Positions 40,020-55,333 of a stretch of DNA of 64,000 nt are shown piece after piece. The notes under the pieces are model-generated. The model did not search any database, had not been told where the DNA came from, and saw nothing but the letters and a program-made list of their open reading frames with translations. The translations under genes were made by a program, and so were the position numbers. This stretch comes from Alphaproteobacteria bacterium (GTDB taxonomy: Bacteria > Pseudomonadota > Alphaproteobacteria > SHVV01), in assembly GCA_965261735.1 (NCBI GenBank), contig OZ253470.1:2144001-2208000 (forward strand), in the 5' to 3' direction. Every line of letters starts with the position of its first letter. The first letter of the stretch is position 1.

Positions 40020-40082
40020 ATGGACACTATAGCGGCGTGCACGAGCCGTCCGGCGTCCGGCTCTTGCGACTGCCGGGCGTGC

Positions 40083-42225
40083 TCATGAGCCCGGCTCGGG
40101 CAGGCTCGGATAGGGCTTCAATCCAGCGGCCTCGCGATCCCTGAAGGCCACGTTGCCGCTCGCCTGCACCAAGCCGCCCACGCTCGGACTGCCGATGATC
40201 CGGTTGTTGCGGTAGACGATGGTGCCGAGGGCCTGCTCCTGGAAGATTTGGCCCGTCTTATCCAGCGGCCCGTCGAAGATGATTGTGTTGCCCTCGACGA
40301 TTGCGCCGTTGATCTCATGCAAACCCTTTTCGCGTTCCATCGACAGACCGATCAACCCCGCGTTGCCGCTGAACGGGCCCTTTTCGAGGACGTTGTTGCG
40401 GATCAGGACTTCGCCGCCAACCGGAATGTCGATCGCTCGGCTGTCGCGCCCGCCCAGTCCCGCGATGACGTTGTTTTCTATGACCGTGCGCCGGGCTCGG
40501 CTCTTGATGCCGTGCCCCTCGCCCTTCGTTCGCAGCACCGTGTTGTTGCGAAAGATCAACGTGTCCAAGCGGCTGCCGGCGTAGATGCTGCCGTGCGCGA
40601 AGCCGTCTTTGCCGTTGCGCTCGAATCTCGAGTTCTCGACGATCACCGTACCGCCGAAGCCGCCGAGGATGCCCTGTTCGCTATCGTGGAAGTAGACGTT
40701 GCGGACCACGAGCCCCTCCGCCTCGAGCTTGATACAGGAGCCGTTTCTATCTTTTACGGCGATACCCGAGCACTCGATCCCCTCGACGACGGTATCGTTG
40801 CCCTTGAGCACCAGCGCGCCCTTGCCCTGTGCGGCTGTGCCCATCAAGTGGGCGCCCGCCTCGCCTCTAATGGTGAGCCGATCCCGTCGCACGACGGCGG
40901 CCTGGCGGTAAACGCCCGGCGCGAGCACGATGACGCTTCCAGGTTCGGCGTCGTCGACGGCGCGCTGTAGAGATGTGTATCCACAGCCGGCCCCCGGCTC
41001 ATCCGGCGGGCATACGCGCAGCACGGCACCCTCGCCGCTCTTGCCCATGATCGCCCCCACCGAGGGTGGGGCGGTGGCGATGCGATTCGAACCGGCAGCC
41101 AAGGGCTCGTCGGGCATGCGGTACACCCAGACCCCCGAATCGACGCTGTTGACGCCAACGAAGACGTCGTGCGCAACCAGGTACACCCATTTGCTGTAGA
41201 CGGCGGCGTCGCGCCGCGGCGGCTTGGGACCCGAGGCGGCGCGGTCAAACAACGCGAGCTCCCAGGTCTCGGGATCGAGCGTGTAGACCTCCGGCGAGCC
41301 CGTCCACAGGACGAACTGCTTGCGGCCGCCATGATAGACGAGCGCCCAGCGGTACATGTCCTCGTGCGGTAATTCGTCGAGCACCGACTCGAAGGATTCC
41401 TAGGTTTTCACCATCGAGCTTGACGGTTCGCACACCGGAGGCGTCGTCGATCGCGACCAGCAGCCGGCGGCCCGCATCGATGGCGGCAACCCCGTTGGTG
41501 ACGAGTCGGGTCCGTGGCGAGCGCCGCGTGTACTGCTTCGCCGTGACATCGAACTCCCAGGCGTGGTTCTTCGTCGCGACGATGACGGCGCCGGTCGCGG
41601 GGTCGACCGAGGTTACGGCGCCCCACCGGCCCGGGTGCGCCGCCGCGTAGGTCCACGTGCGCTCTTGCGGCTCGAACTCCCAGACGCCGGCGCGCCCGCC
41701 GCCCCAGCCGTCGTGGCAATAGACGGGCGAGTGCCACACGAACAGGCTTTGCGTGAGCCGAGACCACACGACACCGTCGTTCGTCGCGCTTGCCGGGGGG
41801 CGATCCTCGTCCACCAGCCCGGCGCAGGATTTGCCCGCCGCCGGATCGCGAAGCCCTGTCGGCTCGGTGAGGCGCTCCCACGTCAGGCTTGCTAGATCGA
41901 AGGCGTAGACTTCATTGCCGCCATAGATTTTGGTGCCGCCGCCGTGAACGTACAAGCGACGGTCGTCGAATGCCGCACCGCTGTCGTCGAGAACGGCCGC
42001 CGGCCCCCGCGTACCGTGCGCGCCCTCCGGGACGGCGTCCGGCTTAACCAGCACTTGACGCATCTGCGTGTCGGGTATCTCGAACCACTCGCCCGGCGAC
42101 ACCCGAGCCGCAATCTCGGCGAGCCCCGCGAGCTCATCCGCGCTCGCGTCGGCGCCCGGCCGGACGGCCGACGATAGCCCGAGCGCGAGCGCCACGGCGA
42201 CGGTACAGATGGACCGCTTGTTCAT
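40083..42225 (-). pseudogene. Secreted Kelch-like beta-propeller + right-handed beta-helix protein, split by a 1-bp insertion near 41398
   Basis: Signal peptide, HGGG..YGGNEVYAFDL, then GKGALV..IEGIECSG-like/GHGIKSRA beta-helix repeats. Removing one base joins ORFs 41245-42255 and 40083-41384. Confidence 0.65.
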
Positions 42226-42325
42226 GATCGAACTGGGATCAGTTTCGCGCGGCATTGAGGGCCATCAGCGGGGAGCGGACATGGAGCCAGCCTTGCCCGG
42301 TCCGCGCGCCTTCCAGGAACCGGCC

Positions 42326-43411
42326 CTAGATCGACGGGCCCTTGTCGCGCACCAGCGGGAGGGTCGAGCAGATCGGGCCGCGGCCGGCGATGCGGCCGCC
42401 CTCGAAGCCCATCTCGAAAACCTCGATGCCGCGCTTCTCGATCTGCTCGCGCGTCTTCGGGTTGCCTGCGGTCACGATCACCTTGCCGGGTTCGGTCGCG
42501 AGCAGGTTGCAGGCATAGTTCTGGCACTCGTCGAGCGGGACCTCGATCAAGTCGAGGTCCTTCTTCTTGAGGTAGCGCAACGTGTCGTAGCCGAGCCCGG
42601 CCGGGTAGACCACACCGAGCCCCTCGGCGACCATGCTGAAGACCATGTCGAGGTGGTAGAAGCCGCCGGCGCCCCCCGCGCGCTGGCTCCAGTTGTTCAA
42701 ATAGCCGGGCAGGTGGGCGACGTGGATTTCCTCGACCCCAGCCATGCGCAGGATCGGCTCGACCTCCGCGATCCCCTCCATGCTGGTGCGCAGCCCGCAG
42801 CCGATCATGACGTGCGTCTCGTCGAGCCAGACGACGTTGCCGGCCTCGAAGACCGAGCCCGGGCCATGGACCATGTAGAGAATCGGGCAGCCGATCTCCA
42901 TCAGCCGCTGCGCGTGCACCTTCTCGAGCCCACGCTTGGACGCTATGCCGGGGCGGCCGACGAGCGCGCCGCCGTTGAGGATGACGGGCTCGCGTGGGCC
43001 ATCAAGCGCGATCAGCTCGGTGTAAGTGCCGCGCACCGATTCGGGCGCGTTGAGCGAGACGACCTCGATCCCCTCGCGCTCCAGGATCGCCACAAGCGAC
43101 TCGTAGTTGCGGATCATCGCGCCGAGGTCGGGCAGCCCCGCCGGCCAGCCGAAGAAGGCGGGGTCCTCCGCGACGACGGGTGCCTGAATGGCACCCGAGG
43201 TGGGCTTTTGGACCATGACGGCGCGCAGGCGCCCGAGCTCGCTTTGCGCACCCCAGCGCCGCCCCCAGGTCGCCTCGAGCTCGTCCATGTAGTCGATGTC
43301 GAACAGGGGCTGCGGCGGCTTGCCCTTCTCGTAGAGCGGAATGCGGGCGAGCTCGTCCGCGGGCGAGAGGCGCGCTTCCCGGGCGACGGGCTCGATGGCT
43401 TCAACACTCAT
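42326..43411 (-). CDS. Amidinotransferase/DDAH/ADI-superfamily (pentein) protein, paralog P1
   Basis: SELGRLRAVMV, FYHLDM, GRGPICSTLPLVRD. Confidence 0.88.
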   Translation of the reverse strand: MSVEAIEPVAREARLSPADELARIPLYEKGKPPQPLFDIDYMDELEATWGRRWGAQSELGRLRAVMVQKPTSGAIQAPVVAEDPAFFGWPAGLPDLGAMIRNYESLVAILEREGIEVVSLNAPESVRGTYTELIALDGPREPVILNGGALVGRPGIASKRGLEKVHAQRLMEIGCPILYMVHGPGSVFEAGNVVWLDETHVMIGCGLRTSMEGIAEVEPILRMAGVEEIHVAHLPGYLNNWSQRAGGAGGFYHLDMVFSMVAEGLGVVYPAGLGYDTLRYLKKKDLDLIEVPLDECQNYACNLLATEPGKVIVTAGNPKTREQIEKRGIEVFEMGFEGGRIAGRGPICSTLPLVRDKGPSI

Positions 43412-43437
43412 GGTCGTACTCCTTCGACTCGCGGCGC

Positions 43438-44535
43438 TCAGAGGGTCGGTCCGCTGTCGCGGATCAGCGGCAGGATCGAGCAATCCGGCCCGCGGCCGCT
43501 CACCTCGCCGCCCTCGAAGCTCATCTCGATCACCTCGATGCCGCGCTTCTCCAGCTGCTCGCGGGTGCGGTGGTTGCCGGGCGTCGCGATGATGCGGCCG
43601 GGGCGAATCGGGGTGACGTTGCAGGCGTAGTTCTGCGCCTCCTCGATCGGCACCTCGATGAGGTCGACGTTCATCTTCTTGAGGTAACGGATGGTGTCGT
43701 AGCCCACGCCCGCCGGGTAGATGACCGCGACTCCCTCATCGACCATGTTGAACACCATGTCGAGGTGGTAGAAGCCGCCCGGGCCGCCGGCGCGCTCGGT
43801 CTGGAAGTTGAGGTAGCCCGGCAGATGCGCGACGTGGAACTCCTCGATGCCGACCGAGCGCAGGACGGGGATGACCTCCTCGATGCCTTCCAAGCTGGTG
43901 CGCACGCTGCAGCCCAGGATGACGTGCGTCTCGTCGAGGAAGATCAGGTTGCCGCCGCCCTCGAAGGCCGAACCCTTGCCGTGCACCGTGTAGAGGATGG
44001 GGCAGCCGATCTCCATCAGGCGCTGCGCGATAATCTTGTTGATGTCGCGCTTGGACGCGATGGCGGTGCGGCCGATGAGCGCGCCGCCATTGAGGATGAT
44101 CGCCTCGTGCGGCGCATCGTGGCCGATGAGCTCGCTCGTATAGACGCCGGGGAGCGATTCGGGCGCGTTGAGGTAGAAGACCTCGACCCCTTCGTCGGCG
44201 AAGATCTTGACCAGCGACTCGTGGTTCTTGCGCATCGAGTCGATGTTGGGCAGGCCCTTGGGCCAGCCGAAATAGATCGGGTCCTCCCTGACGATCGGCG
44301 AGTCGACCTGGCCCCACGTCGGCGGCTGCAGCATAACAGCGCGGAGCTGGCCGATCTGGGTCTGGGCGCCCCACTTGCGGCCCCACGTCGCCTCGAGCTC
44401 GTCGAGGTAGTCGATGTCGAACAGCGGCTGCGGCGGTTTACCCTTCTCATAGTGCGGAATGCGGGCGAGCTCGTCCGCGGGCGACAGCCGGGCGGTGCCC
44501 GACGCCTTGGTTCTCGGCTTCTCGTCGATCGTCAT
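43438..44535 (-). CDS. Pentein-superfamily protein, paralog P2
   Basis: FEGGGN, FYHLDM, GRGPDCSILPLIRD. Confidence 0.88.
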   Translation of the reverse strand: MTIDEKPRTKASGTARLSPADELARIPHYEKGKPPQPLFDIDYLDELEATWGRKWGAQTQIGQLRAVMLQPPTWGQVDSPIVREDPIYFGWPKGLPNIDSMRKNHESLVKIFADEGVEVFYLNAPESLPGVYTSELIGHDAPHEAIILNGGALIGRTAIASKRDINKIIAQRLMEIGCPILYTVHGKGSAFEGGGNLIFLDETHVILGCSVRTSLEGIEEVIPVLRSVGIEEFHVAHLPGYLNFQTERAGGPGGFYHLDMVFNMVDEGVAVIYPAGVGYDTIRYLKKMNVDLIEVPIEEAQNYACNVTPIRPGRIIATPGNHRTREQLEKRGIEVIEMSFEGGEVSGRGPDCSILPLIRDSGPTL

Positions 44536-44571
44536 GGGGTTCTCCGCCGTGATGGGGTGGGACGCGAGCGA

Positions 44572-44598
44572 TTAGATAGAAGGTCCGCGGTCGCGCAC
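44572..44598 (-). pseudogene. Orphan 3' end (VRDRGPSI*) of a probable seventh pentein paralog
   Basis: GTG CGC GAC CGC GGA CCT TCT ATC TAA, 2 bp after the stop of P3; three synonymous differences from P3's own end. Confidence 0.7.
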
Positions 44599-44600
44599 GC

Positions 44601-45689
44601 TTAAATCGAAGGTCCGCGGTCGCGGACCAGGGGTAGCGTCTTGCACACGGGCCCGCGGCCGCTCACGCGCCCGCCCTCGAACGCGACCTCGTGGACGTTA
44701 AGGCCGCGCTTCTCCAGTGCCGCGCGCGTGAGCGGATTGCCCTCGGTGAGGACGACCTCGCCGGGCTCGATCACCAAGAGATTGCAGGCGTAGTTCTGCA
44801 CCTCCTCGAGCGGCACCTCGATGAGGTCGAGGTCCTTCTTCTTGAGGTAACGGATGGTGTCGTAGCCGACTCCGGCGGGGTAGATGACGGCTAGTCCCTC
44901 GCCCGCCATGCCGAACACCATGTCGAGGTGGTAGAAGCCGCCGGGCCCGCCGGCACGCTCGGACTGCACATTGAGGTAGCCCGGCATGTGGGCGATGTGG
45001 ATCTCCTCGACGCCCGCCATGCGCAGCACGGGCTCGACCTCGCGGATGCCCTCCATGCCGGTGCGCACGCCGCAGCCGATCATGGCGTGGCGCTCGTCGA
45101 GCCACACGAGGTTGCCGGGTTCGAACAGCGAGCCCCTCACCATGTGGAGGATGGGGCAGCCGATCTCCATCAGGCGCTGGGCGATAAGCCTCTCGAGCCC
45201 GCGCTTGGACGCCGTCGCCGGCCGGCCGACGAGGGCGCCGCCGTTCAGCACCGTCGCCTCGCGGGTGCCGTCGATGCCGGTGAGCTCGGTATAGGCGCCC
45301 TTGATCGTCTCCGGCGAGTTCAGGTAGACGAGCTCGACGCCCGCGCCCTCGAGAATCGCCATCAGCGACTCGTGGTTGCGCATCATCGCGTCGAGATTGG
45401 CGAGCCCCTTGGGGAAGATGAAGAAGCCGGGGTCTTCCTTGATCACCGGCGAGGCGACCTGGCCCCAGGTCGGCGGCTGGACGAGAACGCTGCGCAGCTT
45501 GCCAAGCTCGGTCTGGGCGCCCCAGCGACGGCCCCATGTCGCCTCGAGCTCATCCATATAGTCGATGTCGAAGAGCGGCTGCGGCGGTTTGCCCTTTTCA
45601 TAAAGCGGGATGCGGGCGAGCTCGTCGGCGGGCGACAGCCGGGCTTTACCCGATTGCTTCGCCTTGGGCTCCTTCTCGTCGATGGTCAT
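44601..45689 (-). CDS. Pentein-superfamily protein, paralog P3
   Basis: FEPGN, FYHLDM, GRGPVCKTLPLVRD. Confidence 0.88.
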   Translation of the reverse strand: MTIDEKEPKAKQSGKARLSPADELARIPLYEKGKPPQPLFDIDYMDELEATWGRRWGAQTELGKLRSVLVQPPTWGQVASPVIKEDPGFFIFPKGLANLDAMMRNHESLMAILEGAGVELVYLNSPETIKGAYTELTGIDGTREATVLNGGALVGRPATASKRGLERLIAQRLMEIGCPILHMVRGSLFEPGNLVWLDERHAMIGCGVRTGMEGIREVEPVLRMAGVEEIHIAHMPGYLNVQSERAGGPGGFYHLDMVFGMAGEGLAVIYPAGVGYDTIRYLKKKDLDLIEVPLEEVQNYACNLLVIEPGEVVLTEGNPLTRAALEKRGLNVHEVAFEGGRVSGRGPVCKTLPLVRDRGPSI

Positions 45690-45702
45690 GGTGCCCTCCG
45701 GT

Positions 45703-46791
45703 TCAGATCGACGGCCCCCTGTCGCGGACCAAGGGGAGCGTCGAGCAGGCGGGCCCGCGGCCGCTCACGTTGCCGCCCTCGAAGGCCATCTCCAGCACCT
45801 CGATGCCGCGCTTCTCGAGCCTCTCCCGGGTGCGCGGGCAACCCGCCGTCATGATGATGCGCCCGGGCCGAATGGCGCACACGTTGCACGCATAATTCTG
45901 CACCTCCTCGAGCGGCACCTCGATGAGCTCGATGTTCTTCTTCTGCAGGTAGCGGATCGTCTCGTAGCCGACGCCGGCCGGGTAGATCAGCGCCAGGCCC
46001 TCGGCCACCATGTTGAACACCATGTCGAGGTGATAGAAGCCGCCGGGACCGCCGGCGCGCTCGGTCTGGAAGTTCAAATAGCCGGGTAGCTGGGCGACGT
46101 GGAACTCCTCGACGCCGACCGAGCGGTAAATCGGAATGACCTCGTCGATGCCCTCCTGGCTCACGCGCACGCTGGTCGCCAGCATGACGTGCGTCTCGTC
46201 GAGCCACACCAGGTTGCCGCCGCTCTCGATGCCGGAGCCCTTGCCGTGCACGGTGTAGAGAATGGGGCAGCCGATTTCCATCAGCCGTTGGGCGAACAGC
46301 TTGTTGATGTCGCGCTTCGACGCAATGGCGGTGCGGCCGATAAGGGCGCCGCCGTCGAGGATGATGACCTCGCGCGGGGCGTCGTAGCCGATCAGCTCGG
46401 TATAGACGCCGCGCATCGAGTCGGGGGCGTTGGCGTCCACCACCTCGACACCCTCGTCCTCGAGGATCTTGACCAGCGACGCGTGATTGCGGTGCATGGC
46501 GTCGAGGTCGGGCAGGCCCTTGGGCAGGCTGAAGAAGACCGGGTCCTCCTTGACCACCGGCGAGGCCACCTGGCCCCAGGTGGTGCGCTGCACCATGACG
46601 CTACGCAATTGCCCGAGCTCGGTCTGCGCCCCCCAGCGCCGCCCCCAGGTCGCCTCGAGCTCGTCCATGTAGTCGATGTCGAACAGCGGCTGCGGCGGCT
46701 TGCCCTTCTCGTAGAGTGGGATGCGCGCGAGCTCTTCCGCGGGCGAGGGGCGCGCGCCCTCCTTCTCCCGCTTCTCACCCTTGGCCGTCAT
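45703..46791 (-). CDS. Pentein-superfamily protein, paralog P4
   Basis: IESGGN, FYHLDM, GRGPACSTLPLVRD. Confidence 0.88.
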   Translation of the reverse strand: MTAKGEKREKEGARPSPAEELARIPLYEKGKPPQPLFDIDYMDELEATWGRRWGAQTELGQLRSVMVQRTTWGQVASPVVKEDPVFFSLPKGLPDLDAMHRNHASLVKILEDEGVEVVDANAPDSMRGVYTELIGYDAPREVIILDGGALIGRTAIASKRDINKLFAQRLMEIGCPILYTVHGKGSGIESGGNLVWLDETHVMLATSVRVSQEGIDEVIPIYRSVGVEEFHVAQLPGYLNFQTERAGGPGGFYHLDMVFNMVAEGLALIYPAGVGYETIRYLQKKNIELIEVPLEEVQNYACNVCAIRPGRIIMTAGCPRTRERLEKRGIEVLEMAFEGGNVSGRGPACSTLPLVRDRGPSI

Positions 46792-46822
46792 AATCGGCCT
46801 CCCTTCGATGGCCCCGCATCCG

Positions 46823-47953
46823 TCAGATGGAGGGCCCCTTGTCGCGTATCAGGGGGAGCGTGGAGCAGGCCGGCCCGCGGCCACTCACCTTACCGCCCTC
46901 GAAGCTCATCTCCACCGTCTCGATGCCGCGCTTCTCCAACTGCTCGCGCGTGCGAGGATTGCCCGCCGTCACGATCAAGCGGCCCGGCCGCAGGGCGAGC
47001 ACGTTGCAGGCGTAGTTCTGCATCTCCTCGTAGGGCACCTCGATGAGGTCGAGGCCCTTCTTCTTGAGGTAGCGGACGGTGTCGTAGCCGACGCCCGCGG
47101 GATAGATCAGCGCCACCCCCTCGGCCGCCATGTTGAACACCATGTCGAGGTGGTAGAACCCACCAGGCCCGCCGGCGCGCTCGGTCCAATGGTTGAGGTA
47201 GCCCGGCAGGTGGGCGACGTGAATCTCCTCGACCCCGACCGAGTTCAGGATCGGGCTGATCTCCTCGATTCCTTCCATGCTGGTGCGAATGCTGGCGCCC
47301 AGCATGACGTGGGTTTCGTCGAGCCAGATCAGGTTGCCGCCGCCCTCGAAGGCGGAGCCCTTGCCGTGCATCGTGTACAGGATGGGGCAGCCGATCTCCA
47401 TCAGGCGCTGGGCCAGGATGCGCTCGATGCCACGCTTGGCGGCGACGGCGGGCCGGCCGATGAGCGCCCCACCGTTGGCGACCACGACTTCGCGCGGTCC
47501 GTCGTAGCCGTAAAGCACGGTGTAGGCGCCGCGCGCGAATTCCGGCGCGTTGAGGTAGATGACCTCGACCCCCTCCGCCTTCATCAGGTTGACGAGCGAT
47601 TCGTGGTTGCGCAGCATCGCGGCCATGTCGGGCAGGCCCTTGGGCCAGCCGAAGTAGATCGGGTCTTCAAGCACCACCGGGGACTCGACCGGGCCGCGCG
47701 TGATGGGCTGAACCATGACGCTGCGCAGGCGCCCGAGCTCGGTCTGGGCGCCCCACTTGCGCCCCCAGGTCGCCTCGAGCTCGTCCATATAGTCGATGTC
47801 GAACAGGGGCTGCGGCGGCTTGCCCTTCTCGTAGAGCGGGATGCGCGCGAGCTCCTCGGCCGGCGAGAGGCGTTTGGCCGTGGACTTGGATTTGGGTTCG
47901 GATTTGGGCTTGGACTTCGACCTGGCGGCTTGGCTTACGTCTTCGATAGCCAT
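46823..47953 (-). CDS. Pentein-superfamily protein, paralog P5
   Basis: FEGGGN, FYHLDM, GRGPACSTLPLIRD; KS-rich N-terminal extension. Confidence 0.88.
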   Translation of the reverse strand: MAIEDVSQAARSKSKPKSEPKSKSTAKRLSPAEELARIPLYEKGKPPQPLFDIDYMDELEATWGRKWGAQTELGRLRSVMVQPITRGPVESPVVLEDPIYFGWPKGLPDMAAMLRNHESLVNLMKAEGVEVIYLNAPEFARGAYTVLYGYDGPREVVVANGGALIGRPAVAAKRGIERILAQRLMEIGCPILYTMHGKGSAFEGGGNLIWLDETHVMLGASIRTSMEGIEEISPILNSVGVEEIHVAHLPGYLNHWTERAGGPGGFYHLDMVFNMAAEGVALIYPAGVGYDTVRYLKKKGLDLIEVPYEEMQNYACNVLALRPGRLIVTAGNPRTREQLEKRGIETVEMSFEGGKVSGRGPACSTLPLIRDKGPSI

Positions 47954-48083
47954 CGCACTTCTCCCTCACTGCGGCCGGCGCGGTGCCACGGGGGCCCGTC
48001 GCCGATCCCGCGCATCGTCTTGGTCTACAGCGTCGGGGGTGAGGCCCGCGCCTCCTTCGGCGCCACCTCACCCCCCAGGACAG

Positions 48084-49097
48084 CTACATCATACCGAGGT
48101 CTTTGATGACTTCGTCGACGAGCGAGCGATCGACGATCTCCTCATACGTGATCGGCCGCGAGATCGCGCCGAGGCTGTGGTAGGTCTTGGACGAGAACTC
48201 CGTCACCTCGCGCCCGAGCCCACCATTGGTGCCCCAGACCCCCTGATCGTTGAGGGAGGGGATGATCTGTTTGATCAGAGCCATGTCGACGGTGGGTGTC
48301 CGATTCTTCATGATTTCCGCGGCTTTGTCGGGGTCCTTCTGGATCAGCCGCACGCCCTCGATTCCGCCTCTGACGAAGATCTTGAGAGACTTGCGAAGGG
48401 CGGGATCGGCGACACTCTTCTTGGTCGCGACCGAGTAGAGGTACCCGAGGCCGGGGAACTCCTTGGCGATCGAGGCGACCTCGATCAAACCCTGCTGCAT
48501 GCCGATGGCCGTGAAGAAGGTGTCGACCATCGTCACCTCGACCTTCTTCGCCACCACCGCCTGCATGCGCGAGCTCATGCCACCGACGGACAGGAACGTG
48601 GCGTCCCTCGGATCGAGCCCGTACTTACGCATGACCATCTTGGGGATTTCGGCCGACATGCCGCCGGTGCTGAACGAGGCCCATTTCTTGTCGCCCAGGT
48701 CCTTGATCGAGCTGCCGACCTCGGGCCGGGTGATGACGTGGTAATCGGTGACCGGCTGCCATGACGAGATAACCGTGACCGGCGCGCCCTTGATAATTCC
48801 GTTCATCACTGTGTTGGGGCCGAGGACCGTGACATCGGCGTCGCCCGCAATCAGGACGCGCAGGGAGTTGGCGTCACCGGTGACGACCTTCTCCTCGACC
48901 TCCAAACCCCACTCCTTGTACCAGCCGAGGTCCTGGGCAACGAAGAACGGAAGCAGGTACGTCGCCGGGCCCGTCGGCATGACAAAGCGGAGCTTGTCGG
49001 CGGCGGCCGCTGGTCCGGCGCCGGCCACCACCATCATCACGGCGGCGAGGGCGAGGCCCGCCACGAGTCGAGTCGCAAAGCTTCTCAGACGTGTCAT
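48084..49097 (-). CDS. NitT/TauT (SsuA/THI5-like) ABC substrate-binding protein
   Basis: Signal peptide; LPFFVAQDLGWYKEWGLEVE; SIKDL..KK; DPDKAAEI. Confidence 0.85.
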   Translation of the reverse strand: MTRLRSFATRLVAGLALAAVMMVVAGAGPAAAADKLRFVMPTGPATYLLPFFVAQDLGWYKEWGLEVEEKVVTGDANSLRVLIAGDADVTVLGPNTVMNGIIKGAPVTVISSWQPVTDYHVITRPEVGSSIKDLGDKKWASFSTGGMSAEIPKMVMRKYGLDPRDATFLSVGGMSSRMQAVVAKKVEVTMVDTFFTAIGMQQGLIEVASIAKEFPGLGYLYSVATKKSVADPALRKSLKIFVRGGIEGVRLIQKDPDKAAEIMKNRTPTVDMALIKQIIPSLNDQGVWGTNGGLGREVTEFSSKTYHSLGAISRPITYEEIVDRSLVDEVIKDLGMM

Positions 49098-49269
49098 TAA
49101 GAGTCCTCCCGTTAGGCTCGTTCGGCCGGCGGCCGATGCGCCATTTCTAATTGTGCGTCGCCGCGTTCTCGTGGCGGCGCCAAAACCGTCATCTCGGACA
49201 CAGTGAGCGGATGATCAGTTGGTCAACCTTACCCGCATTGCAACCCGGCGTCACCCCGCCGCGCTGGCC

Positions 49270-50517
49270 TCAGGAGAGAAACGCCTCCTCGAAGGGAAAC
49301 TTGGTCAGGATCTCGACGCCCCCCTCGGTGACCAGGACCTGTTCCTCGAGCTTGACGCCCTCGCGCCCGCCCTCGGCGCCGATATAGCTCTCGATGCACA
49401 GGACCATGTTCTCCTCGATAAGCCCGTCGTACCCGGACGCGTCCCAGTCCTGCAGGTGATAGATCGCGGGATACTCGTCGCACATGCCGACCCCGTGGGC
49501 GACGACCGAATAGCGGTTGGCCTCATATCCCTTCGGGTAGGTCCACGCCTTGTCCGCGACCTCGCGAAAGCTCGTGCCGGGCTTGATCAGCGCCAGGTTG
49601 TGGGCGAGCTCGTCCAAAGCCAGCTTGTAGAGGTCGCGCTGTGCCGTGCTCGGCTTGCCGGGGCCGCAGTAGAAGGTGCGCGAGACGTCGGCGCAGTAGC
49701 CGAACGGCCCGATCATGTCGGTATCGAACGCGACGAGCTCACCGGCGCGTATGACCCGGTCGCTGCATTCCTGCTGCCACGGGTTGGTGCGGTCGCCGGA
49801 CGCGAACAGGCGGCCGTCGATCCAGTCGCCGCCCATGGCGATGTTGGTCTGATGCAGGAGCGCCCATAGCTCGTTCTCGGTCACGCCCGGCCTCAGGGCC
49901 TCGCGCATGCGGGCGATGCCCACTTCGGCGGCTGCGATGGAGAAGTTCATGCACAGGATTTCCTCCGCCGACTTGATGGCGCGCGCATGCTCGAGCGGCT
50001 CCTGGGCGTCGACCATCTCGAGGCCGCGCTCGGCGAGCAGGGCTGGCGTCCTGAGGTCGTGGCGGTCGACGGCGAGGCGCCGGTTGCCGCCGCAGTGGCT
50101 CGCCACCAGCTCGGCGACCGTATCGGCCCAACGGCCGAGCAGCTCTTCGACCCGTGGTCCGGCGAAAAAGAAGTTGAGCGGCAGCGAGGGGCGGAACTCG
50201 GCGATGGTTTCGTTCTGCTTGGACGCCTGCCGCTCGGGATGCGAATCGAAGACGAAGACCGGTCCCTCGGCCGGAACGAACGCGTAGCGGCCGAGCATGT
50301 GGAGCTGGAACACGGGGTGATTGCGGGCGCCCGTCGCATAGCGGACGTTGACCGGATCGAACAGGACACAGGCGCCGTAGTCGCGCGCTATAAGCTGCTC
50401 GCGCACGCGCGCCAGCCGGTGGGCGCGCAGCGCCACCATGTCGATCCCGGCCTCGATATCGGATGCGCGATTGATCGGAGTCGTCGCCGCGGCGCGGAGG
50501 ATGTCGGCTTCGGGCAT
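49270..50517 (-). CDS. M24 family metallopeptidase-fold enzyme, DddP-like subfamily
   Basis: LFDPVNVRYATG, RLFASGDRTNPWQQEC, FDTDMIG..ADVSR, HGVGMCDEYP, CIESYIG, GVKLEEQV. Confidence 0.8.
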   Translation of the reverse strand: MPEADILRAAATTPINRASDIEAGIDMVALRAHRLARVREQLIARDYGACVLFDPVNVRYATGARNHPVFQLHMLGRYAFVPAEGPVFVFDSHPERQASKQNETIAEFRPSLPLNFFFAGPRVEELLGRWADTVAELVASHCGGNRRLAVDRHDLRTPALLAERGLEMVDAQEPLEHARAIKSAEEILCMNFSIAAAEVGIARMREALRPGVTENELWALLHQTNIAMGGDWIDGRLFASGDRTNPWQQECSDRVIRAGELVAFDTDMIGPFGYCADVSRTFYCGPGKPSTAQRDLYKLALDELAHNLALIKPGTSFREVADKAWTYPKGYEANRYSVVAHGVGMCDEYPAIYHLQDWDASGYDGLIEENMVLCIESYIGAEGGREGVKLEEQVLVTEGGVEILTKFPFEEAFLS

Positions 50518-50698
50518 GGCGTGCCTCCCTGGCGTGCGTTGCCGTTGTCGGATGCGGGGGTCGCTTCCGAGGTGTCTCGCCTTATCGCACATTTCCCGGC
50601 GCGCGGCGTGCACCGGAGCGCGGACCGCAGGAATCGCCTTTTTCGCGGCCCCGTACCGACATAGGATGAGGAAAAGGTAGTGGAGGAAGGACAAACCC

Positions 50699-51784
50699 AT
50701 GACGACGACAGAGGTCAGGCTGGCGCGGCGCGAGGACGAGCTGTCCCCCGCGCAGGAACTCGAGCGCATTCCGCTCTACGAGAAGGGCAAGCCGCCGCAA
50801 CCGCTCTTCGATATCGACTATATGGACGAGCTCGAGGCGACGTGGGGCCGCAAGTGGGGCGCCCAGACGGAGCTCGGACAGCTTCGCGCGGTCATGATGC
50901 AGCCGCCGACGATGGGGCAGACCGACACGCCCCTGTACCGCGAGGATCCGGTCTACTTCATGTGGCCCAAGGGCGTGCCCGACTTCGAGGCGATGAAGCG
51001 CAACCACCAGTCGCTGGCCGATCTCCTCAAGGGCGAGGGTGTCGAAATCGTCTACCTCAACGCGCCCGATGCCGTGCGCGGTACCTACACCTTCATCAAG
51101 GGCTACGATGCACCGCGCGAGCCGGTGATCCTGAACGGCGGCGCGCTCGTCTGCCGCAACGCCATCGGGCCGCAGCGCGGCATCAACAAGCTCATCGCGA
51201 CCCGCCTGATGGAGATCGGCTGCCCCATCCTGTACATGGCCCACGGCAAGGGTTCGTCGATCACCGGCGGCAATTTCGTCTGGCTCGACGAGCGTCACGT
51301 GATGATCGGGTGCAGCGTGCACACGAGCATGGAAGGCATCGAGGAGGTCACGCCAATCCTGCACAGGGCGGGCGTCGAGGAGATTCACGTGGCGCACATG
51401 CCGGGTTATCTCAACCAGATGACCGAGCGCGCCGGGGGTGCCGGGGGCTTCTACCACCTCGACATGATCTTCCAGATGGTCGACCAGGGCGTGGCCGTGA
51501 TCTACCCGGCGGGCGTCGGCTACGACACCATCCGCTACCTCAAGAAGCGGAACATCGATCTCATCGAGATTCCGCTCGAGGAGGTGCAGAACTATGCCTG
51601 CAACCTGCTGCCGATCCGGCCCGGGCGCGTGGTGCTGACCGCCGGCAACCCGCGCACCCGCGAGGCGCTGGAGAAGCGCGGAGTCGAGGTTCTCGAGATG
51701 ACGTTCGACGGCGGCCGCCTGAGCGGCCGTGGACCCGTGTGCTCGACCTTACCGCTGGTGCGTGACGTGGGTCCGTCGATCTGA
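50699..51784 (+). CDS. Pentein-superfamily protein, paralog P6 (divergently transcribed)
   Basis: Same N-terminal arm as P1-P5, ITGGN, FYHLDM, GRGPVCSTLPLVRD. Confidence 0.88.
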   Translation: MTTTEVRLARREDELSPAQELERIPLYEKGKPPQPLFDIDYMDELEATWGRKWGAQTELGQLRAVMMQPPTMGQTDTPLYREDPVYFMWPKGVPDFEAMKRNHQSLADLLKGEGVEIVYLNAPDAVRGTYTFIKGYDAPREPVILNGGALVCRNAIGPQRGINKLIATRLMEIGCPILYMAHGKGSSITGGNFVWLDERHVMIGCSVHTSMEGIEEVTPILHRAGVEEIHVAHMPGYLNQMTERAGGAGGFYHLDMIFQMVDQGVAVIYPAGVGYDTIRYLKKRNIDLIEIPLEEVQNYACNLLPIRPGRVVLTAGNPRTREALEKRGVEVLEMTFDGGRLSGRGPVCSTLPLVRDVGPSI

Positions 51785-51862
51785 AGCTCTCGCAAGGTGA
51801 GGGCGACCAAGACCGGCGCGGCCCGTTCGCTGGGCCGCGCCCCACGGGGGAGCGCTACGGCC

Positions 51863-52648
51863 ATGAAGGGTGTCATCAACTACGTCTTCGAGCGACCCAC
51901 GGCCCACCGCACGATCGTCGTCATCATCTTTTTCATCTTCTGGGAGTGGGCCGCGCGCAACGCCAATCCGCTCTTCATCTCCTATCCGACGGCGATCTTT
52001 GTCGCGTTCTGGGAGCTGCTGCTCAACGGCGAGCTCATCCGGGCGTTCCTCGCCAGCATGGTGCCGTTCGCGATCGGCATGGCGATCTCCATCGCCGGCG
52101 GCATCGCCCTCGGTGTCGTCATCGGGCAGTGGTGGTTCTTCGAGCGCACGCTCGATCCCTTCGTCAACGCGCTCTACGCGATCCCTCGGGTCGCGCTGGT
52201 ACCGCTCATCATGCTGTGGGCCGGCCTGGAAACCACGGGCAAGGTCACGATTCTGGTGTCCATCGCCATCTTTCCGGTCCTCATCAACACCTACTCCGGC
52301 ATCAAGGACGTGCGCGGCTCCTTCCTCGAGATCGGCAAGGCCTTCGGCGCCACGGAACGCGAGATCTTCGTCAAGATCACGATGCCGGCGGCGGTTCCCT
52401 TCGTCATGGCCGGCATCCGCATGTCGGTCGGGCTCGCCATCATCGGCATGGTCGTCGCCGAGTTCTTCACCGCCATCACCGGGCTCGGCGGTATGATCGT
52501 CGAATACGCTAACGTCTTTGCCACCGACAGGCTGTTCGTGCCGATCATCCTCATCGGCCTCATGGGCGTCGGCCTGACCGAGCTGGTGATGTACATCGAG
52601 CGCCGGCTCTCGAAGTGGCGCACCCTCGAGCGCGACCGCATCGGGTAG
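51863..52648 (+). CDS. NitT/TauT family ABC permease
   Basis: IPRVALVPLIMLWAG, EAA-like loop, VVAEF..GLG. Confidence 0.88.
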   Translation: MKGVINYVFERPTAHRTIVVIIFFIFWEWAARNANPLFISYPTAIFVAFWELLLNGELIRAFLASMVPFAIGMAISIAGGIALGVVIGQWWFFERTLDPFVNALYAIPRVALVPLIMLWAGLETTGKVTILVSIAIFPVLINTYSGIKDVRGSFLEIGKAFGATEREIFVKITMPAAVPFVMAGIRMSVGLAIIGMVVAEFFTAITGLGGMIVEYANVFATDRLFVPIILIGLMGVGLTELVMYIERRLSKWRTLERDRIG

Positions 52649-52666
52649 CAAGGCGACGCGCCGGAC

Positions 52667-53125
52667 CTACAGGATCGTCGAGGGCGAGAACTCGAGGCGC
52701 CGCGTGTCCATGCGCACCGTGCGCTCGGCGAGCCGCGGCGCCGCGCCATCCAGCGCTATGTCATCGTGGTAGGTGACCACGGCAAAGAGGCGGCTCGTCC
52801 CTTGCGGATCGGTGTGATAGACGATCACCGAGCTCTCCATCCTCACCCGCGCCTCTGAGCGCTCGATCTCCCGGCAGCGGCCGGCGTGGCGGCGGTAAGT
52901 ACCGGGCACGACGAGGTGGCGCGGCAGGTCCTCGAAGCGGACGCGAAGCTGCTCCAGGCTCTGGTCGAGCCACACCATCTCCTTGCCGATCTCGTCGCTG
53001 TAGGCGGTGATGCGGTAGCGGAAGTCGGGCGCGCACAGGCCGAGCCAGGACTCGTAGGCCTCGGCGTCGAGGAGGGCGCAGGAGGCGTAGACGAGGTCGA
53101 CCAGCGCGGCCCGATCGGTGCTCAC
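52667..53125 (-). CDS. Ring-hydroxylating oxygenase beta subunit, MsmB-like
   Basis: GTG start overlapping the alpha stop; LCAPDFRYRITAYSDEIGKEMVWLD, VRMDTRRL. Confidence 0.75.
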   Translation of the reverse strand: MSTDRAALVDLVYASCALLDAEAYESWLGLCAPDFRYRITAYSDEIGKEMVWLDQSLEQLRVRFEDLPRHLVVPGTYRRHAGRCREIERSEARVRMESSVIVYHTDPQGTSRLFAVVTYHDDIALDGAAPRLAERTVRMDTRRLEFSPSTIL

Positions 53126-54330
53126 GCCGCCCCCGCGGCCCCCGCGGCGGCGAGCGGATCGCGCGCCGAGCGTCCCATGCGGCGCTCCCACTCGGCGTAG
53201 TACTGGCGCAGGTTGGCCTCGTCGTGGGCCATCAGGTTTTCCTCGCGCGCGATCACGCTGTAGCTCGCGCTGCCGTAGGTCGCCTCCTGCTGGATAATGG
53301 CGGCGGCGTTGTCCTCGGGCACGTTCCAGCCGAAGGGCCCCCACAGCGTGTTGTGGTCGTTGTAGCGGGCGAGGCGCGCCGCCTCGGGCTCGCCCTTGAC
53401 GCCGATGCCGCGAAACTGCACCAGTGTCCGATCGACGCCGTGCGGCGTCATGGTGTCGATGCGCATGGCCGAATCGCGCATGATCATCGCCGTGTCGGGC
53501 CACACGTCGACGACTCGGAACTCGCGCGGCCCGAGCCCCGGCAGCGGCACTCCTTCGCGCTCCTTCTTCCAGCCCGGCTGGGCGTCGTACTGAACGATCA
53601 GGGGCCCGAGCAGCGTCGCGTGCCCGCGCCGGTAGAACTTCCAGGTGCGCTCGTGGTAGCCGGCCGCGCGGATGGTCTGGCGGCGATTAATGCTGTGCAT
53701 GAACGCGTGGTAGGACTCGCAGTTCACCTCCTGCAGGTGCTTCCAGTTCGCGTCCACGATCTGCTCGTGATAGTGGTAGACCTCGAGCGGCTCGGTGCCG
53801 AGAACAGCGGCCGCGTTCTCCAGCCCATCGCCCAGGAAATCATCGATGGGTTCGGCGTCATCGTCGAAATTGATGAACACCAGGCCCAGGCGTACCGCCG
53901 TCCGGATCTCGCGCAGGCCCATGTCCTCGGCGCGGCAGCCGGCGCTCTCGTAGGCTTCGTTGCGCGTCATCGAGACGCAGTTCCCTTGCGCATCGTACAC
54001 CCATAGGTGGAACACGCAGGTGAAGCGCGTGGCGTTCCCGTGCAGGCCCTGGACGACCTTGGCGCCGCGGTGCGAGCAGGTGTTCTGGAAGGTGCGCACC
54101 GCGCCGTCCTCGCCGCGCACGACCAGGATGGGAATGCGCGCTACCTCCATCGTGCGGTAGTCGCCGGGCTCGGCGACCTCGCTCTCGTGACAGACGAACT
54201 TCCACACCTTGTGCCAGATGTTCTCGATTTCCGCCTCGAAGATCGACTCGTCGGTGTAGATGCGATTGTCGAGGAAGTGGGTGGGGGGAAGCTGCGGGGC
54301 GCGCTCCCACTCCCGGGCCGTGCGCGACAT
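53122..54330 (-). CDS. Rieske oxygenase alpha subunit, MsmA (methanesulfonate monooxygenase)-like
   Basis: CSH-x17-CVFH; ESYHAFMH; DHNTLWGPFG; REENLMAHDE..RQYYAEWERRMGR resemble MsmA-type sequences. Confidence 0.75.
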   Translation of the reverse strand: MSRTAREWERAPQLPPTHFLDNRIYTDESIFEAEIENIWHKVWKFVCHESEVAEPGDYRTMEVARIPILVVRGEDGAVRTFQNTCSHRGAKVVQGLHGNATRFTCVFHLWVYDAQGNCVSMTRNEAYESAGCRAEDMGLREIRTAVRLGLVFINFDDDAEPIDDFLGDGLENAAAVLGTEPLEVYHYHEQIVDANWKHLQEVNCESYHAFMHSINRRQTIRAAGYHERTWKFYRRGHATLLGPLIVQYDAQPGWKKEREGVPLPGLGPREFRVVDVWPDTAMIMRDSAMRIDTMTPHGVDRTLVQFRGIGVKGEPEAARLARYNDHNTLWGPFGWNVPEDNAAAIIQQEATYGSASYSVIAREENLMAHDEANLRQYYAEWERRMGRSARDPLAAAGAAGAA

Positions 54331-54502
54331 GCCTGGTCCCTCCCTGAAGGCGCGGCATCGAGCCGCCGGCAGATGGAGAAATCCTAGCCCTTAAGGCGGC
54401 CCGCCTCAAACGCCAAGGTGACACTGTACGATCGCGTTAGGCCGAAGACGCGACGATGACATGGTATTGTGCGCTGACACCCGTCCAAACCGGGAGAGAA
54501 AC

Positions 54503-55036
54503 ATGAAGGGCGCGGAGTTCATCCTCGATACCTTCGAGCGCAACAAGGCGGCGCTGCACCGGGAGTTCGAGGACATTACGCCCGGCGAACTTGCGTCCGA
54601 GCCCCATCCCTCGATCACCTGGCTCGCGTGGCATCTGGTGCGGGTACAGGACGTCGAGATGGCGAAGCTCGCGGGGCGCTGCCAGACGTGGATCGTCGAT
54701 GGCTGGCACGACAGGTTCGGTATGCCGTCCGACCCGCAGGACTACGGGCCGGCGCACACTCAGACGCGCGCACAGGTAAGTGCGCTCCAGGCGGAAGCGT
54801 CATTACTACTCGCCTACCACGATACGGTACACGGGCGTAGCGCCGAGTTCCTTGCCGGGCTCAGCGACGACGATCTCGACCGCGTGCTCGACGAGCCGCG
54901 CTTCCAGCCGCTGCCCACGGTGGGCGTCCGCCTCGTGAGCGTGATCAACGACAACATCCAGCACGTCGGCCAGATCATGTACCAGAAGGCGTGCCTCCGG
55001 GCCGGCGGCTGGTTCCCCAACCCGCGGCCGGCCTGA
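54503..55036 (+). CDS. DinB/YfiT family protein
   Basis: SITWLAWHL, QHVGQI. Confidence 0.8.
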   Translation: MKGAEFILDTFERNKAALHREFEDITPGELASEPHPSITWLAWHLVRVQDVEMAKLAGRCQTWIVDGWHDRFGMPSDPQDYGPAHTQTRAQVSALQAEASLLLAYHDTVHGRSAEFLAGLSDDDLDRVLDEPRFQPLPTVGVRLVSVINDNIQHVGQIMYQKACLRAGGWFPNPRPA

Positions 55037-55066
55037 AACGATCAAGAACCCGCCGGGAGGTCGCCG

Positions 55067-55333
55067 ATGCCCTTGCTCCGTAGCCTGCTGATGCGCGCCG
55101 CCCTGCGGATCGCCTCCGATCCGCGCGTTCAGGCCAAGGCGGCAGAGGTCTACGACGGCGAGGTCAAGCCGCGCGCCGAGGCCGCCTGGTCGCGCGCCAA
55201 GCCCAAGCTTGCAGCTGCCAAGGCGGAGCTGCGCGAGGTGGCCCGCGAAGCCGACCCGCGAGGACGAGCCCGCGAGCTCGCCCGGAAGCTAAAGCGGCGC
55301 CTCGACGAGGGAACGGGCCCCAAGGATCGCTGA
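55067..55333 (+). CDS. Small hypothetical protein
   Basis: GGGAGG RBS, helical 88-aa ORF with high GC3. Confidence 0.6.
   Translation: MPLLRSLLMRAALRIASDPRVQAKAAEVYDGEVKPRAEAAWSRAKPKLAAAKAELREVAREADPRGRARELARKLKRRLDEGTGPKDR

Follow-up and report, generated by a model that had tools for sequence, protein, structure and literature searches.

The pentein array and its neighbourhood

The window (the whole stretch of DNA that was analysed, 64,000 nucleotides) contains, between positions 42326 and 51784, six intact pentein open reading frames, P1 to P6, coding for proteins of 361-376 amino acids each, the first five on the minus strand and the sixth on the plus strand (Table 1). All six products match PF02274 (clan CL0197) with 41.4-68.8 bits, at a gathering cut-off of 22.8, and the array of six paralogues that the first-pass annotation had placed here is therefore real. 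Every gene has an ATG start with a GGAG-type Shine-Dalgarno site upstream of it. The start of P1 was set accordingly at the ATG at 43411; the longest frame, which begins with a TTG at 43483, would overlap P2. The minus-strand genes are separated by 31 (P5-P4), 13 (P4-P3), 65 (P3-P2), and 26 bp (P2-P1).

Table 1. Features of the pentein locus, in window coordinates
Feature	Position	Strand	Description
P1	42326-43411	-	type-A NnhA-like pentein, 361 aa; PF02274
P2	43438-44535	-	type-A pentein, 365 aa; PF02274
P3	44601-45689	-	type-A pentein, 362 aa; PF02274
P4	45703-46791	-	type-A pentein, 362 aa; copy used for the structure model
P5	46823-47953	-	type-A pentein, 376 aa; PF02274
Binding protein	48084-49097	-	NMT1/THI5-SsuA-type periplasmic SBP; PF09084, E 2e-19; signal-peptide-like N-terminus
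M24 hydrolase	49270-50517	-	DddP-like, 415 aa; NF043017; PDB 4b28/4rzy, E about 1e-83
Intergenic region	50518-50698		181 bp, divergent; between two putative operons
P6	50699-51784	+	type-B pentein, 361 aa; PF02274
ABC permease	51797-52648	+	NitT/TauT-type (SsuC/SaoP-like); PF00528, E 7e-24
Rieske oxygenase beta subunit	within ORF 52667-53503	-	PF00866; start not fixed
Rieske oxygenase alpha subunit	53122-54330	-	PF00355+PF00848

The six proteins are 68-76% identical to each other, and their genes 70-81%, or 73-80% in the comparison that also gave the protein values. A repeat finder reported five direct copies spaced 1102-1163 nt apart (70-81% identity over the whole length) and a sixth, inverted copy (73-81% identity), and found no near-identical tracts between copies. 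Contigs with at least 95% likeness from two other public runs (X3 and X9, of different studies) account for all 30 bins into which window positions 40000-56000 were divided. The contigs listed span the kelch/P1, P3/P4, P4/P5, P5/SBP/M24, M24/P6, and P6/permease junctions; the P1/P2 and P2/P3 junctions are bridged by none of the longest contigs listed, beyond which there are 699 more. We conclude that the array is not an assembly duplication, as had been argued from the divergence of the copies. Metatranscriptome contigs of two studies match P3 (184 nt), P5 (46841-47045), P6 (50685-50893 and 51096-51598), and the SBP gene (48067-49165, the longest such contig of the stretch). Presence in RNA libraries is weak evidence, because DNA carry-over is possible. 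The claim that many flanking genes are decayed was partly right: it holds for mobile-element genes, which are the decayed genes seen at the flanks, such as an IS1595 transposase interrupted by an IS3 insertion (55962-58347) and a truncated Mutator transposase (11687-12607).

The gene order reads as two divergent operons, one comprising M24, SBP, and P5-P4-P3-P2-P1, the other P6 and the ABC permease, which begins 12 bp past P6. In the intergenic region between them, no promoter-like matches above chance and no Rfam family were found. The permease scored 129 bits against NF040733 (cut-off 295), and no ABC ATPase gene lies within the locus. The M24 product falls short of the DddP (DMSP lyase) model NF043017, with 354.6 bits at a cut-off of 600, despite a near-full-length alignment to DddP structures.

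Family placement and active-site residues

The best solved relative of the array proteins is NnhA, the 2-nitroimidazole nitrohydrolase of Mycobacterium sp. JS330 (PDB 9AZG), which was retrieved with E 1.4e-21 in a single-sequence search and with E 6.3e-52 in a profile search (profile positions 11-351 aligned to chain positions 23-376). It is also the best fold match (E 8e-23, TMq 0.77) of an AlphaFold model of P4 (pLDDT 87.4, pTM 0.85). The fold search yielded 146 PDB matches with E<=0.001 and, among the matches listed, all are GME enzymes. The model is an alpha/beta-propeller whose nucleophile is the C-terminal Cys and whose base is His, both residues being kept in all six proteins, as originally noted. 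We conclude that the six are members of an uncharacterised cluster around NnhA in the GME superfamily. Thus, the closest named relative is NnhA rather than the amidinotransferases, DDAH, or ADI proposed at first, while placement in an uncharacterised family agrees with the profile search and with the NnhA paper, whose authors state that the rest of this branch is uncharacterised and confined to a few niches (PMC11659421). The NnhA-like family of the six is very rare: among 1.84 billion cluster representatives, P4 stands alone at 50% identity or higher.

Other families of the superfamily fit less well. With the arcA model TIGR01078, scores were 38.1-64.3 bits against a cut-off of 489.1, and ADI chains align to the profile of the six only as three separate pieces. 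The DDAH family (NF045658/NF045660) fits no better: scores with NF045658 were 25-38 bits (cut-off 450), and the HLD Asp stands where DDAH has Lys. Among the amidinotransferases (AGAT, StrB1, SxtG), AGAT was matched only with E 7e-6 over the C-terminal 105 profile positions, and ranked ninth in the fold search, below NnhA and ADI. CtlX, another recently recognised PF02274 catabolic hydrolase, is a putative citrullinase (Price et al. 2022, PMC9007349) whose function was inferred from context and genetics; the passage describing it gives Asn for the two guanidinium-binding positions (FPNN, HTN), where all six array proteins have xPRE and HLD. Since they keep these acids, a charged amidino group, not a ureido group, is expected in the substrate.

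Active-site residues were mapped through NnhA (section 9 of PMC11659421) and Pseudomonas aeruginosa ADI, using alignments at about 25% identity to the former and 14-17% to the latter. The FYHLD and GRGPxC motifs reported in the first-pass annotation are indeed kept in six of six, as are Cys, His, the HLD Asp, and Asn. The second guanidinium binder is Glu in all six (APRE), versus Asp in ADI and DDAH (FTRD, according to the CtlX passage of PMC9007349). P1-P5 carry the whole ADI-like set, with Cys, His, and Glu, both acidic residues for guanidinium binding, and Arg: they match Cys406, His278, Glu224, Asp280, and Arg243 of ArcA (2A9G), and the other Arg that binds carboxylate is represented by a Lys-Arg pair. 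In P6, Thr replaces the triad Glu, His the R243-equivalent Arg, and Gln the Lys; its orthologues P0002, P0014, and P0003 likewise have T/S, H, and Q. Judged by these residues, P6 is a derived subtype and the six copies are not equivalent. Because the triad Glu is lost, P6 may be no hydrolase. P2 is the most deviant type-A copy, with APHE instead of APRE and an Asp directly before the catalytic Cys. P3 has a 2-residue deletion in the conserved loop before the triad Glu, which its orthologue does not share. The Chloroflexi relatives P0022 and P0024 are without the HLD Asp.

NnhA and the array proteins belong to the same GME branch, have similar length (about 360-370 amino acids), a homologous N-terminal extension ahead of the propeller, and matching Cys, His, Asp, and Asn positions. 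They differ in context, which here is a transporter, not resistance, in copy number, and in the pocket, where NnhA G143, F146, W149, M168, S216, and F250 correspond to G/A, A/G, Glu, Lys/Gln, Arg/His, and a variable residue. With a hydrophobic pocket replaced by charged, ADI-like residues, a substrate combining a guanidinium or amidinium group with an anion is expected. Unlike ADI, the six lack the helical domain, as indicated by their length and the piecewise alignment, and have no arcB/arcC partners. With the DDAHs of P. aeruginosa (1H70) and human (DDAH1) they share the propeller core (TMt 0.84-0.86) and Cys-His-Glu chemistry, but have about 110 extra N-terminal and lid residues.

The segment aligned to NnhA pocket residues G143-W149 differs by paralogue and is conserved among orthologues. 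The P1 group has ELIALD(G/A)PRE there, the P3 group ELTGIDGTRE, the P5 group xLYGYDGPRE, and the P6 group [FY]IKGYDAPRE. Other positions with at least four states are 187 (before the triad Glu), 240 (after YLN, the NnhA F250 position), and 347 (before the Cys). Since 167 of 352 gap-free columns (47%) are invariant among the six, the few variable pocket-aligned positions are not statistically separable from background.

Selection, orthology, and related arrays

In all 15 pairwise comparisons, dN/dS was 0.24-0.45 (dS 0.49-0.79), a value well away from 1 that indicates purifying selection; no gene-conversion tracts were found among the six copies. Phylogenetic analysis recovered the groups (P1,P0017,P0030,P0026) with support 99/99, (P3,(P0013,P0190)) with 100/100 and 81-82% identity, (P5,P0015) with 100/99 and 84.8% identity over 264 amino acids, and (P6,(P0002,P0014)) with 100/99. 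P6 is 85% identical to both P0002 and P0014, and 75% to P0003. Other organisms thus carry orthologues, 81-85% identical, of each of P1, P3, P5, and P6, and these four paralogue lineages are older than the split from those organisms. P2 groups with P4 and P5 (support 98/99); neither P2 nor P4 has an orthologue outside its own genome in the data examined. We conclude from the orthologues of P1, P3, P5, and P6 that the copies are old and separately kept, and the original proposal of an expansion maintained by selection stands.

Residues 12-60 of P6, the N-terminal segment, are the most constrained region across the six paralogues (pN of 0.05-0.08 versus 0.11-0.28 elsewhere). Because pS is unchanged there (0.44-0.46), the conservation reflects protein-level constraint, not gene conversion. 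Helices are predicted in this segment at positions 17-22 and 41-49 of the P4 model.

SBP and/or permease genes adjoin penteins in this genome (G000) and in L014, L013, and L016. In L014, a permease orthologue (72.5% identical) follows the P6 orthologue, which an SBP orthologue (67% identical) also adjoins; L016 has two SBP paralogues upstream of a type-A pentein. In the two related genomes searched, a P6-type gene beside the same transporter is the only member of the clade found. Rieske alpha genes, with 33-36% identity, flank the P6 orthologues of L013 and L014. ABC importers likewise adjoin further NnhA-like penteins within this bacterial family.

Penteins had been said to occur usually as one or a few unlinked copies; for this bacterial family that is not so, as tandem NnhA-like sets are present in six of its genomes, including this one. 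A second NnhA-like array lies at 4825331-4828891 of G000, with counterparts at L020-L022. Its order is fixed in this genome and three relatives: a degenerate paralogue, with H-G-G for H-x-D and the Asn lost, is followed by a canonical one. The degenerate and canonical groups are sister clades (support 99, 95, 100), and the pairs look like catalytic and degenerate subunits, a layout typical of a catalytic unit paired with a non-catalytic one. They resemble the present array in being tandem paralogues by an uptake system, here Liv-type ABC importers, but are about 30% identical to the six, number two to four copies, and include one partner in which Asp and Asn were lost, unlike the uniformly canonical P1-P5.

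Proposed function of the locus

The six penteins probably degrade guanidino- or amidino-type nitrogen compounds that the cell imports. We propose an uptake-and-breakdown unit for nitrogen-rich guanidino/amidino compounds that carry an anionic group. The proposal builds on observed gene anatomy, family placement, conserved residues, selection, orthology, and neighbourhood, from which chemistry, substrate class, and division of labour are inferred. The NMT1-type binding protein and the ABC permease would import the substrate, with the ATPase encoded elsewhere, and the penteins would act as cytoplasmic cysteine hydrolases. If the chemistry is like that of ADI, DDAH, and NnhA, it would start with an attack of the C-terminal Cys on the amidino carbon and the departure of ammonia or an amine; water, activated by the His-Glu pair, would then hydrolyse the thiouronium intermediate. 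The M24 enzyme, which is DddP-like, and the Rieske oxygenase may act on the same substrates or on their products.

As to the division of labour, our leading reading, held tentatively and at slightly less than an even chance, is a panel of active hydrolases, each specialised on related imported guanidino/amidino acids. P1-P5, which have all needed residues, would be separately maintained isoenzymes, tuned to different substrates or different steps by the differences in the pocket segment, while P6, a derived subtype established earlier, would have an altered active site and would act alone beside the transporter in relatives. A single binding protein fits five or six substrates poorly, unless it is promiscuous or the substrates are successive intermediates, and the sister arrays of this genome favour a different arrangement, in which the co-transcribed paralogues form mixed NnhA-like rings as the functional unit.

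We consider such mixed rings unlikely overall, though they are the main rival. Passages of the NnhA paper describe a hexamer, a trimer of N-terminally domain-swapped dimers, with one N-terminal helix near the partner's active-site lid (PMC11659421). In the array, the segment homologous to the swap helices is the most constrained, the type-A genes are co-oriented and 13-65 bp apart, and the degenerate and canonical pairs of the second array keep a fixed order. Paralogues derived from a homomer tend to cross-assemble when the interface is kept. However, conservation of the N-terminal segment extends to more distant family members (A2 consensus), so its constraint need not reflect cross-assembly; five of five type-A copies retain every catalytic residue, so that none resembles a scaffold subunit; and G001 and G004 have P6-type proteins but no type-A copy, which argues against an obligatory A+B complex. 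The specific version in which the six form one hetero-hexameric ring of three domain-swapped dimers, five catalytic type-A protomers plus P6, whose invariant N-terminal helices close the neighbours' differing pockets, so that amidino nitrogen is stripped multi-specifically from an entire class of imported guanidino compounds, is very doubtful. If true, it would give the pentein superfamily a new quaternary logic.

It is improbable that all copies have one function and either serve to raise expression or are drifting. The common catalytic set of the type-A copies, the single transporter, and the P3 loop deletion would suit this, but the divergence of the copies in identity and dS, the age of four of their lineages, and the individual constraint on each copy indicated by dN/dS do not, nor do six intact frames in a genome ridden with insertion sequences (119 IS1595-like copies). 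Still less probable is classical arginine or methylarginine catabolism by ADI or DDAH isoenzymes. Pfam names ADI and DDAH_eukar, and P1-P5 have ADI-like guanidinium- and carboxylate-binding residues, but the arcA and DDAH scores fall far below cut-off, the alignment to ADI is broken in three, and the DDAHs carry Lys at the HLD Asp position, according to the relevant passage of PMC11659421. The genes do not belong to the ADI pathway, whose arcB and arcC the first-pass annotation had reported as absent from the window: arcC gave 0 matches in the 98%-complete genome, and OTCase matches lie far from the locus and outside the window, at 1.47 Mb and 0.50 Mb. A role in denitration of nitroimidazole (azomycin), or in resistance to it, is highly improbable, even with NnhA as the closest solved and characterised relative, given the replaced pocket residues (W149, M168, S216, F146, F250) and 24-25% identity, where the authors, in the passages concerned, found activity only in homologues above 50% and doubt it below (PMC11659421).

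The NnhA-related GME branch has one characterised member, and because the family is so rare, any function found would be new biochemistry, not re-annotation. The locus offers a tractable entry point: it places five canonical copies next to a derived one, has natural orthologues to compare, and encodes a dedicated binding protein whose ligand would name the substrate. If the penteins are specialised isoenzymes, they would map how pocket changes retune pentein specificity and would indicate that a pool of guanidino/amidino nutrients has gone unrecognised. Co-assembly would instead make them the first pentein complex built from several paralogues, and would account for the tandem sets that recur across this bacterial family.

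Anatomy and reality of the array

Each of the pentein genes P1-P6 (penteins being the superfamily of guanidino-group-modifying, or GME, proteins) has a GGAG-type Shine-Dalgarno site before its ATG. For P1, the ATG at 43411 was taken as the start instead of the TTG (43483) of the longest ORF, which would overlap P2. All six products score above the Pfam cut-off for PF02274 (41.4-68.8 bits versus 22.8) and keep the FYHLD and GRGPxC motifs. With six intact ORFs, this domain and these motifs, the six-gene pentein array reported in the first-pass annotation is confirmed.

Features of the array, its surroundings and related loci (window positions unless a contig or locus is named)
Feature	Position	Strand	Remarks
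IS expansion	4785-5633, 9861-11100, 55962-59918
Another catabolic cluster	21028-32339		luciferase-like monooxygenase, alpha/beta hydrolase, Rieske alpha, two RidA, amidohydrolase, Zn-ADH, TauE/SafE exporter
Pentein array, P1-P6	42326-51784		six intact genes, 361-376 codons each
P1-P5		minus	head to tail, gaps of 26, 65, 13 and 31 bp
P3	44601-45689	minus
NMT1/THI5-SsuA-type periplasmic binding protein	48084-49097	minus	upstream of P5
DddP-like M24 hydrolase	49270-50517	minus	354.6 bits versus DddP cut-off of 600; E ~1e-83 to 4B28/4RZY
P6		plus
NitT/TauT-type ABC permease		plus	12 bp after P6
Rieske oxygenase alpha/beta pair		minus	after the permease
18-nt insertion in one run contig	53128		Rieske alpha/beta junction
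Further M24 copy, source genome	G000:C1:928110-929351
Second pentein array, source genome	G000:C1:4825331-4828891		L017:8317-12075

The view that the copies are not an assembly artefact also stands: contigs from independent runs cover every bin, and the copies are evenly diverged. The source genome is a single contig of 5.03 Mb. The 9.46-kb array stretch was present in 20 of the 24 public runs listed (11 studies), with at least half of the sampled words found in 15, and all 30 bins of window 40000-56000 were covered by contigs of two runs from different studies. Six gene junctions were bridged among the contigs listed, P1/P2 and P2/P3 not being among those. Joints in the run contigs have sides of 20-24 letters and were read as k-mer overlaps with paralogues or other organisms, and not as deletions. 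Pairwise identity of P1-P6 is 68-76% for protein and 73-80% for nucleotide sequences; a repeat finder run over the full gene length gave an even identity of 70-81% at a spacing of 1102-1163 nt, and revealed no near-identical tracts between the copies. At the Rieske alpha/beta junction, a contig of run X9 has 18 extra nt, made up of two 9-nt units, which are absent in run X3.

Identical IS3-like copies, 46,628 nt apart, lie around the region. A composite transposon is unsupported, since such copies abound genome-wide (13 IS3-like and 119 IS1595-like, with thresholds of 800 nt and 95% identity), and the bracketing is therefore not special. The IS1595-like elements include identical inverted copies and one copy that the IS3 insertion has split.

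Family placement and active-site subtypes

The best solved relative of P1-P6 is the 2-nitroimidazole nitrohydrolase NnhA (PDB 9AZG), found with an E-value of 1.4e-21 using P6 as a single query, and of 6.3e-52 using a 31-sequence profile, positions 11-351 of which aligned to chain residues 23-376. A fold search with an AlphaFold model of P4 (pLDDT 87.4, pTM 0.85) returned 9AZG on top (E 8e-23, TMq 0.77, 24% identity) and ranked ADI, amidinotransferases and DDAH behind it; look-alikes in the ESM Atlas were named as 'ADI/DDAH family' only. P1-P6 belong to a known superfamily, in a branch with a single characterised member, and the passages of PMC11659421 on NnhA place it in a cluster of uncharacterised GME proteins from few taxa.

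The NnhA-like family of P1-P6 is rare. Among 5.8 billion proteins, a word-indexed search returned 42 matches, several of them the window's own. When 1.84 billion 50%-identity representatives were searched exhaustively, 1004 matched at E<=1e-3, of which 270 reached E<=1e-10 and 43 reached E<=1e-30; P4 itself was the only one with an identity of 50% or more. Pattern scans were made of genome contigs, with one genome for each prokaryote species, and of metagenome contigs. The former yielded two relatives among 100 matches, both of them further loci from MAGs titled Alphaproteobacteria bacterium, and the latter two among 116. With two N-terminal peptide patterns only, neither scan retrieved another array.

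The active site was mapped by alignment to NnhA (roles as in section 9 of PMC11659421) and by profile alignment to P. aeruginosa ADI. The nucleophilic Cys, the His, the Asp of HLD and a conserved Asn are kept in all six proteins. In all six, a Glu (xPRE) also takes the place of the second guanidinium-binding Asp of ADI and DDAH, and of Trp149 in NnhA; a passage on CtlX in PMC9007349 describes the FTRD/HLD pair. Two subtypes could be distinguished. At the positions of ADI Glu224, ADI Arg243 and the other carboxylate-binding Arg, type A (P1-P5) has Glu, Arg and Lys-Arg, while type B (P6) has Thr, His and Gln-Arg, and the P6 orthologues P0002, P0014 and P0003 show the same T/S, H, Q pattern. More distant relatives show the type-A state, and type B is therefore derived. 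Two related genomes with members of the P1-P6 clade, G001 (locus L014) and G004 (locus L013), have a type-B copy only. Judged by these residues, P1-P6 look built for a substrate with a cationic amidino or guanidino group and an anionic group. In P3, the VHGKGS loop that precedes the triad Glu, near-invariant elsewhere, is two residues short (His-Gly); the orthologues P0013 and P0190 keep both.

Selection, orthology and related arrays

In line with the selected expansion proposed in the first-pass annotation, pairwise dN/dS (Nei-Gojobori) among P1-P6 was 0.24-0.45 in 15 of 15 pairs, i.e., not near 1, with dS of 0.49-0.79. Orthology was determined from a careful tree of 25 rows, which included homologues from other organisms. 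P5 paired with P0015 (support 100/99, 84.8% identity), P1 grouped with P0017, P0030 and P0026 (99/99, 81-85%), P3 with the pair P0013 and P0190 (100/100, 81-82%), and P6 with the pair P0002 and P0014 (100/99, 85%). P2 and P4 grouped with P5/P0015 (98/99) and had no outside orthologue in the data seen. Since four paralogues have orthologues in other organisms, at least four of the six lineages predate the split from those organisms and have been kept separately. The orthologue pairs rule out a recent in-genome burst. Gene conversion behind the conserved N-terminus was rejected because synonymous divergence there equals that of the rest of the gene. For both P0190 and P0015, the longest contig listed in ENA measures 71,382 bp; from this equal length alone, we would guess at a second organism with P3- and P5-type genes on one contig. 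The P1 orthologue P0030, from a 259-kb ENA contig, is 84.8% identical over the first 178 residues and continues with unrelated sequence, and is either frameshifted or affected by an assembly error.

Eight of 41 sampled genomes had a match at E<=1e-20, including the source genome and five of seven other genomes of its family; those five have 3-8 NnhA-like genes each, often adjacent, and the source genome has 11. The second array of the source genome has counterparts in G001, G004 and G005 (loci L020-L022), and its order is fixed in the four genomes. It opens with a degenerate paralogue, in which H-G-G replaces H-x-D and the Asn is gone but the Cys remains, and continues with one or two canonical ones. 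In G001 and G004, genes for a Liv-type binding protein, permease and ATPases come after the penteins, and the array of G005 has a fourth copy without the Cys. A quick tree placed the degenerate and the canonical copies in two sister clades (99 and 95, joint 100), and the second array looks like a pair of catalytic and pseudo-subunits. Tandem paralogue sets beside importers are thus a habit of this lineage. In the sister clade of the P1-P6 family, a Chloroflexi MAG has three copies (P0022, P0024 and P0025; locus tags 04775, 04800 and 04860) on one 135-kb contig. The HLD Asp is missing from two of these copies (HTT and HLT), recalling the HTN motif of CtlX, a putative citrullinase, and one of the two also lacks the Glu and the Arg.

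Neighbourhood and possible function

A gap of 181 bp separates the M24 gene from the divergent P6. The core of the neighbourhood is repeated in L014, which contains a binding protein (67% identical), a type-B pentein, a permease (72.5%) and a Rieske alpha gene. L013 has an NMT1-type binding protein and Rieske alpha near its pentein and no permease, and a soil-type metagenome contig (L016) has two binding-protein genes followed by a type-A pentein. No ABC ATPase gene is present in the array locus, L014, L013 or L016. Since binding protein and permease lack an adjoining ATPase gene both here and in L014, an ATPase from another locus, or a shared one, must serve them. The bacterial family has multiple copies of DddP-like M24 hydrolases (1-4 matches per genome in five genomes searched, 44-66% identity), among them copies in G001, G004, G005 and G006; one in G001 lies ca. 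20 kb from a pentein pair.

Metatranscriptome contigs from two studies match P3, P5, P6 and the binding protein, the longest being on the latter, and are compatible with transcription of these four genes; bins without RNA-contig cover (e.g., 43204-44271 in run X16) carry no information. One RNA run was labelled sponge metagenome, with a 0.06 share of words, too little for naming the habitat. No Rfam family, including guanidine riboswitches, matched the array locus, and promoter-like (one versus 1.3 expected) and terminator-like sites (six versus 5.5) occurred at chance level in a scan of the locus.

The reading we favour, at somewhat less than an even chance, is that the paralogues form a panel of specialised isoenzymes. 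In favour of such a panel, the catalytic set is complete in each of the five type-A copies. The segment aligned to the NnhA pocket residues G143-W149 reads ELIALD.PRE, ELTGIDGTRE, xLYGYDGPRE or [FY]IKGYDAPRE, and is paralogue-specific and conserved among orthologues; other positions with at least four states immediately precede the triad Glu and the Cys, or follow YLN (where NnhA has F250). Because just 167 of 352 columns (47%) are invariant among P1-P6, concentration of the variation in the pocket is not statistically demonstrable.

Mixed NnhA-like oligomers of the paralogues are a less probable, though not mutually exclusive, arrangement. As described in the passages of PMC11659421 on its structure, NnhA is a ring of three dimers swapped via N-terminal helices, one of which reaches the lid of the partner's active site. 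The homologous segment is the most constrained part of P1-P6 (pN 0.05-0.08 versus 0.11-0.28 elsewhere, with the same pS), the genes are packed in a single operon-like row, and sister arrays look heteromeric. However, the N-terminal segment is also conserved across the wider family, and type B stands alone in relatives, which argues against an obligatory complex. Plain redundancy of the copies is improbable. A classical ADI or DDAH function appears more doubtful still; the six proteins score 38-64 bits for arcA and 25-38 bits for DDAH, versus cut-offs of 489 and 450, respectively. NnhA-type denitration is the least credible: P1-P6 have not retained the hydrophobic pocket that the NnhA authors associate with the imidazole ring, and almost certainly do not share this activity.

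We infer the following mechanism of import and breakdown. A guanidino- or amidino-acid would be taken up into the cytoplasm by the binding protein and permease. There, the pentein Cys would attack the amidino carbon, ammonia or an amine would depart, and water activated by His/Glu would then hydrolyse the thiouronium intermediate, a step that, in the mechanistic passages of PMC11659421, is described for ADI and DDAH and proposed for NnhA. The same skeletons, or else the products, may be processed by the M24 and Rieske enzymes. Nitrogen scavenging would be the likely benefit.

Our searches of open-access literature found no description of a six-paralogue array with two active-site subtypes that is retained across lineages. 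Expansion of a gene family beside a transporter is a familiar theme, and bolder readings stay conjectural; the array itself is real, rare, under selection and experimentally tractable.
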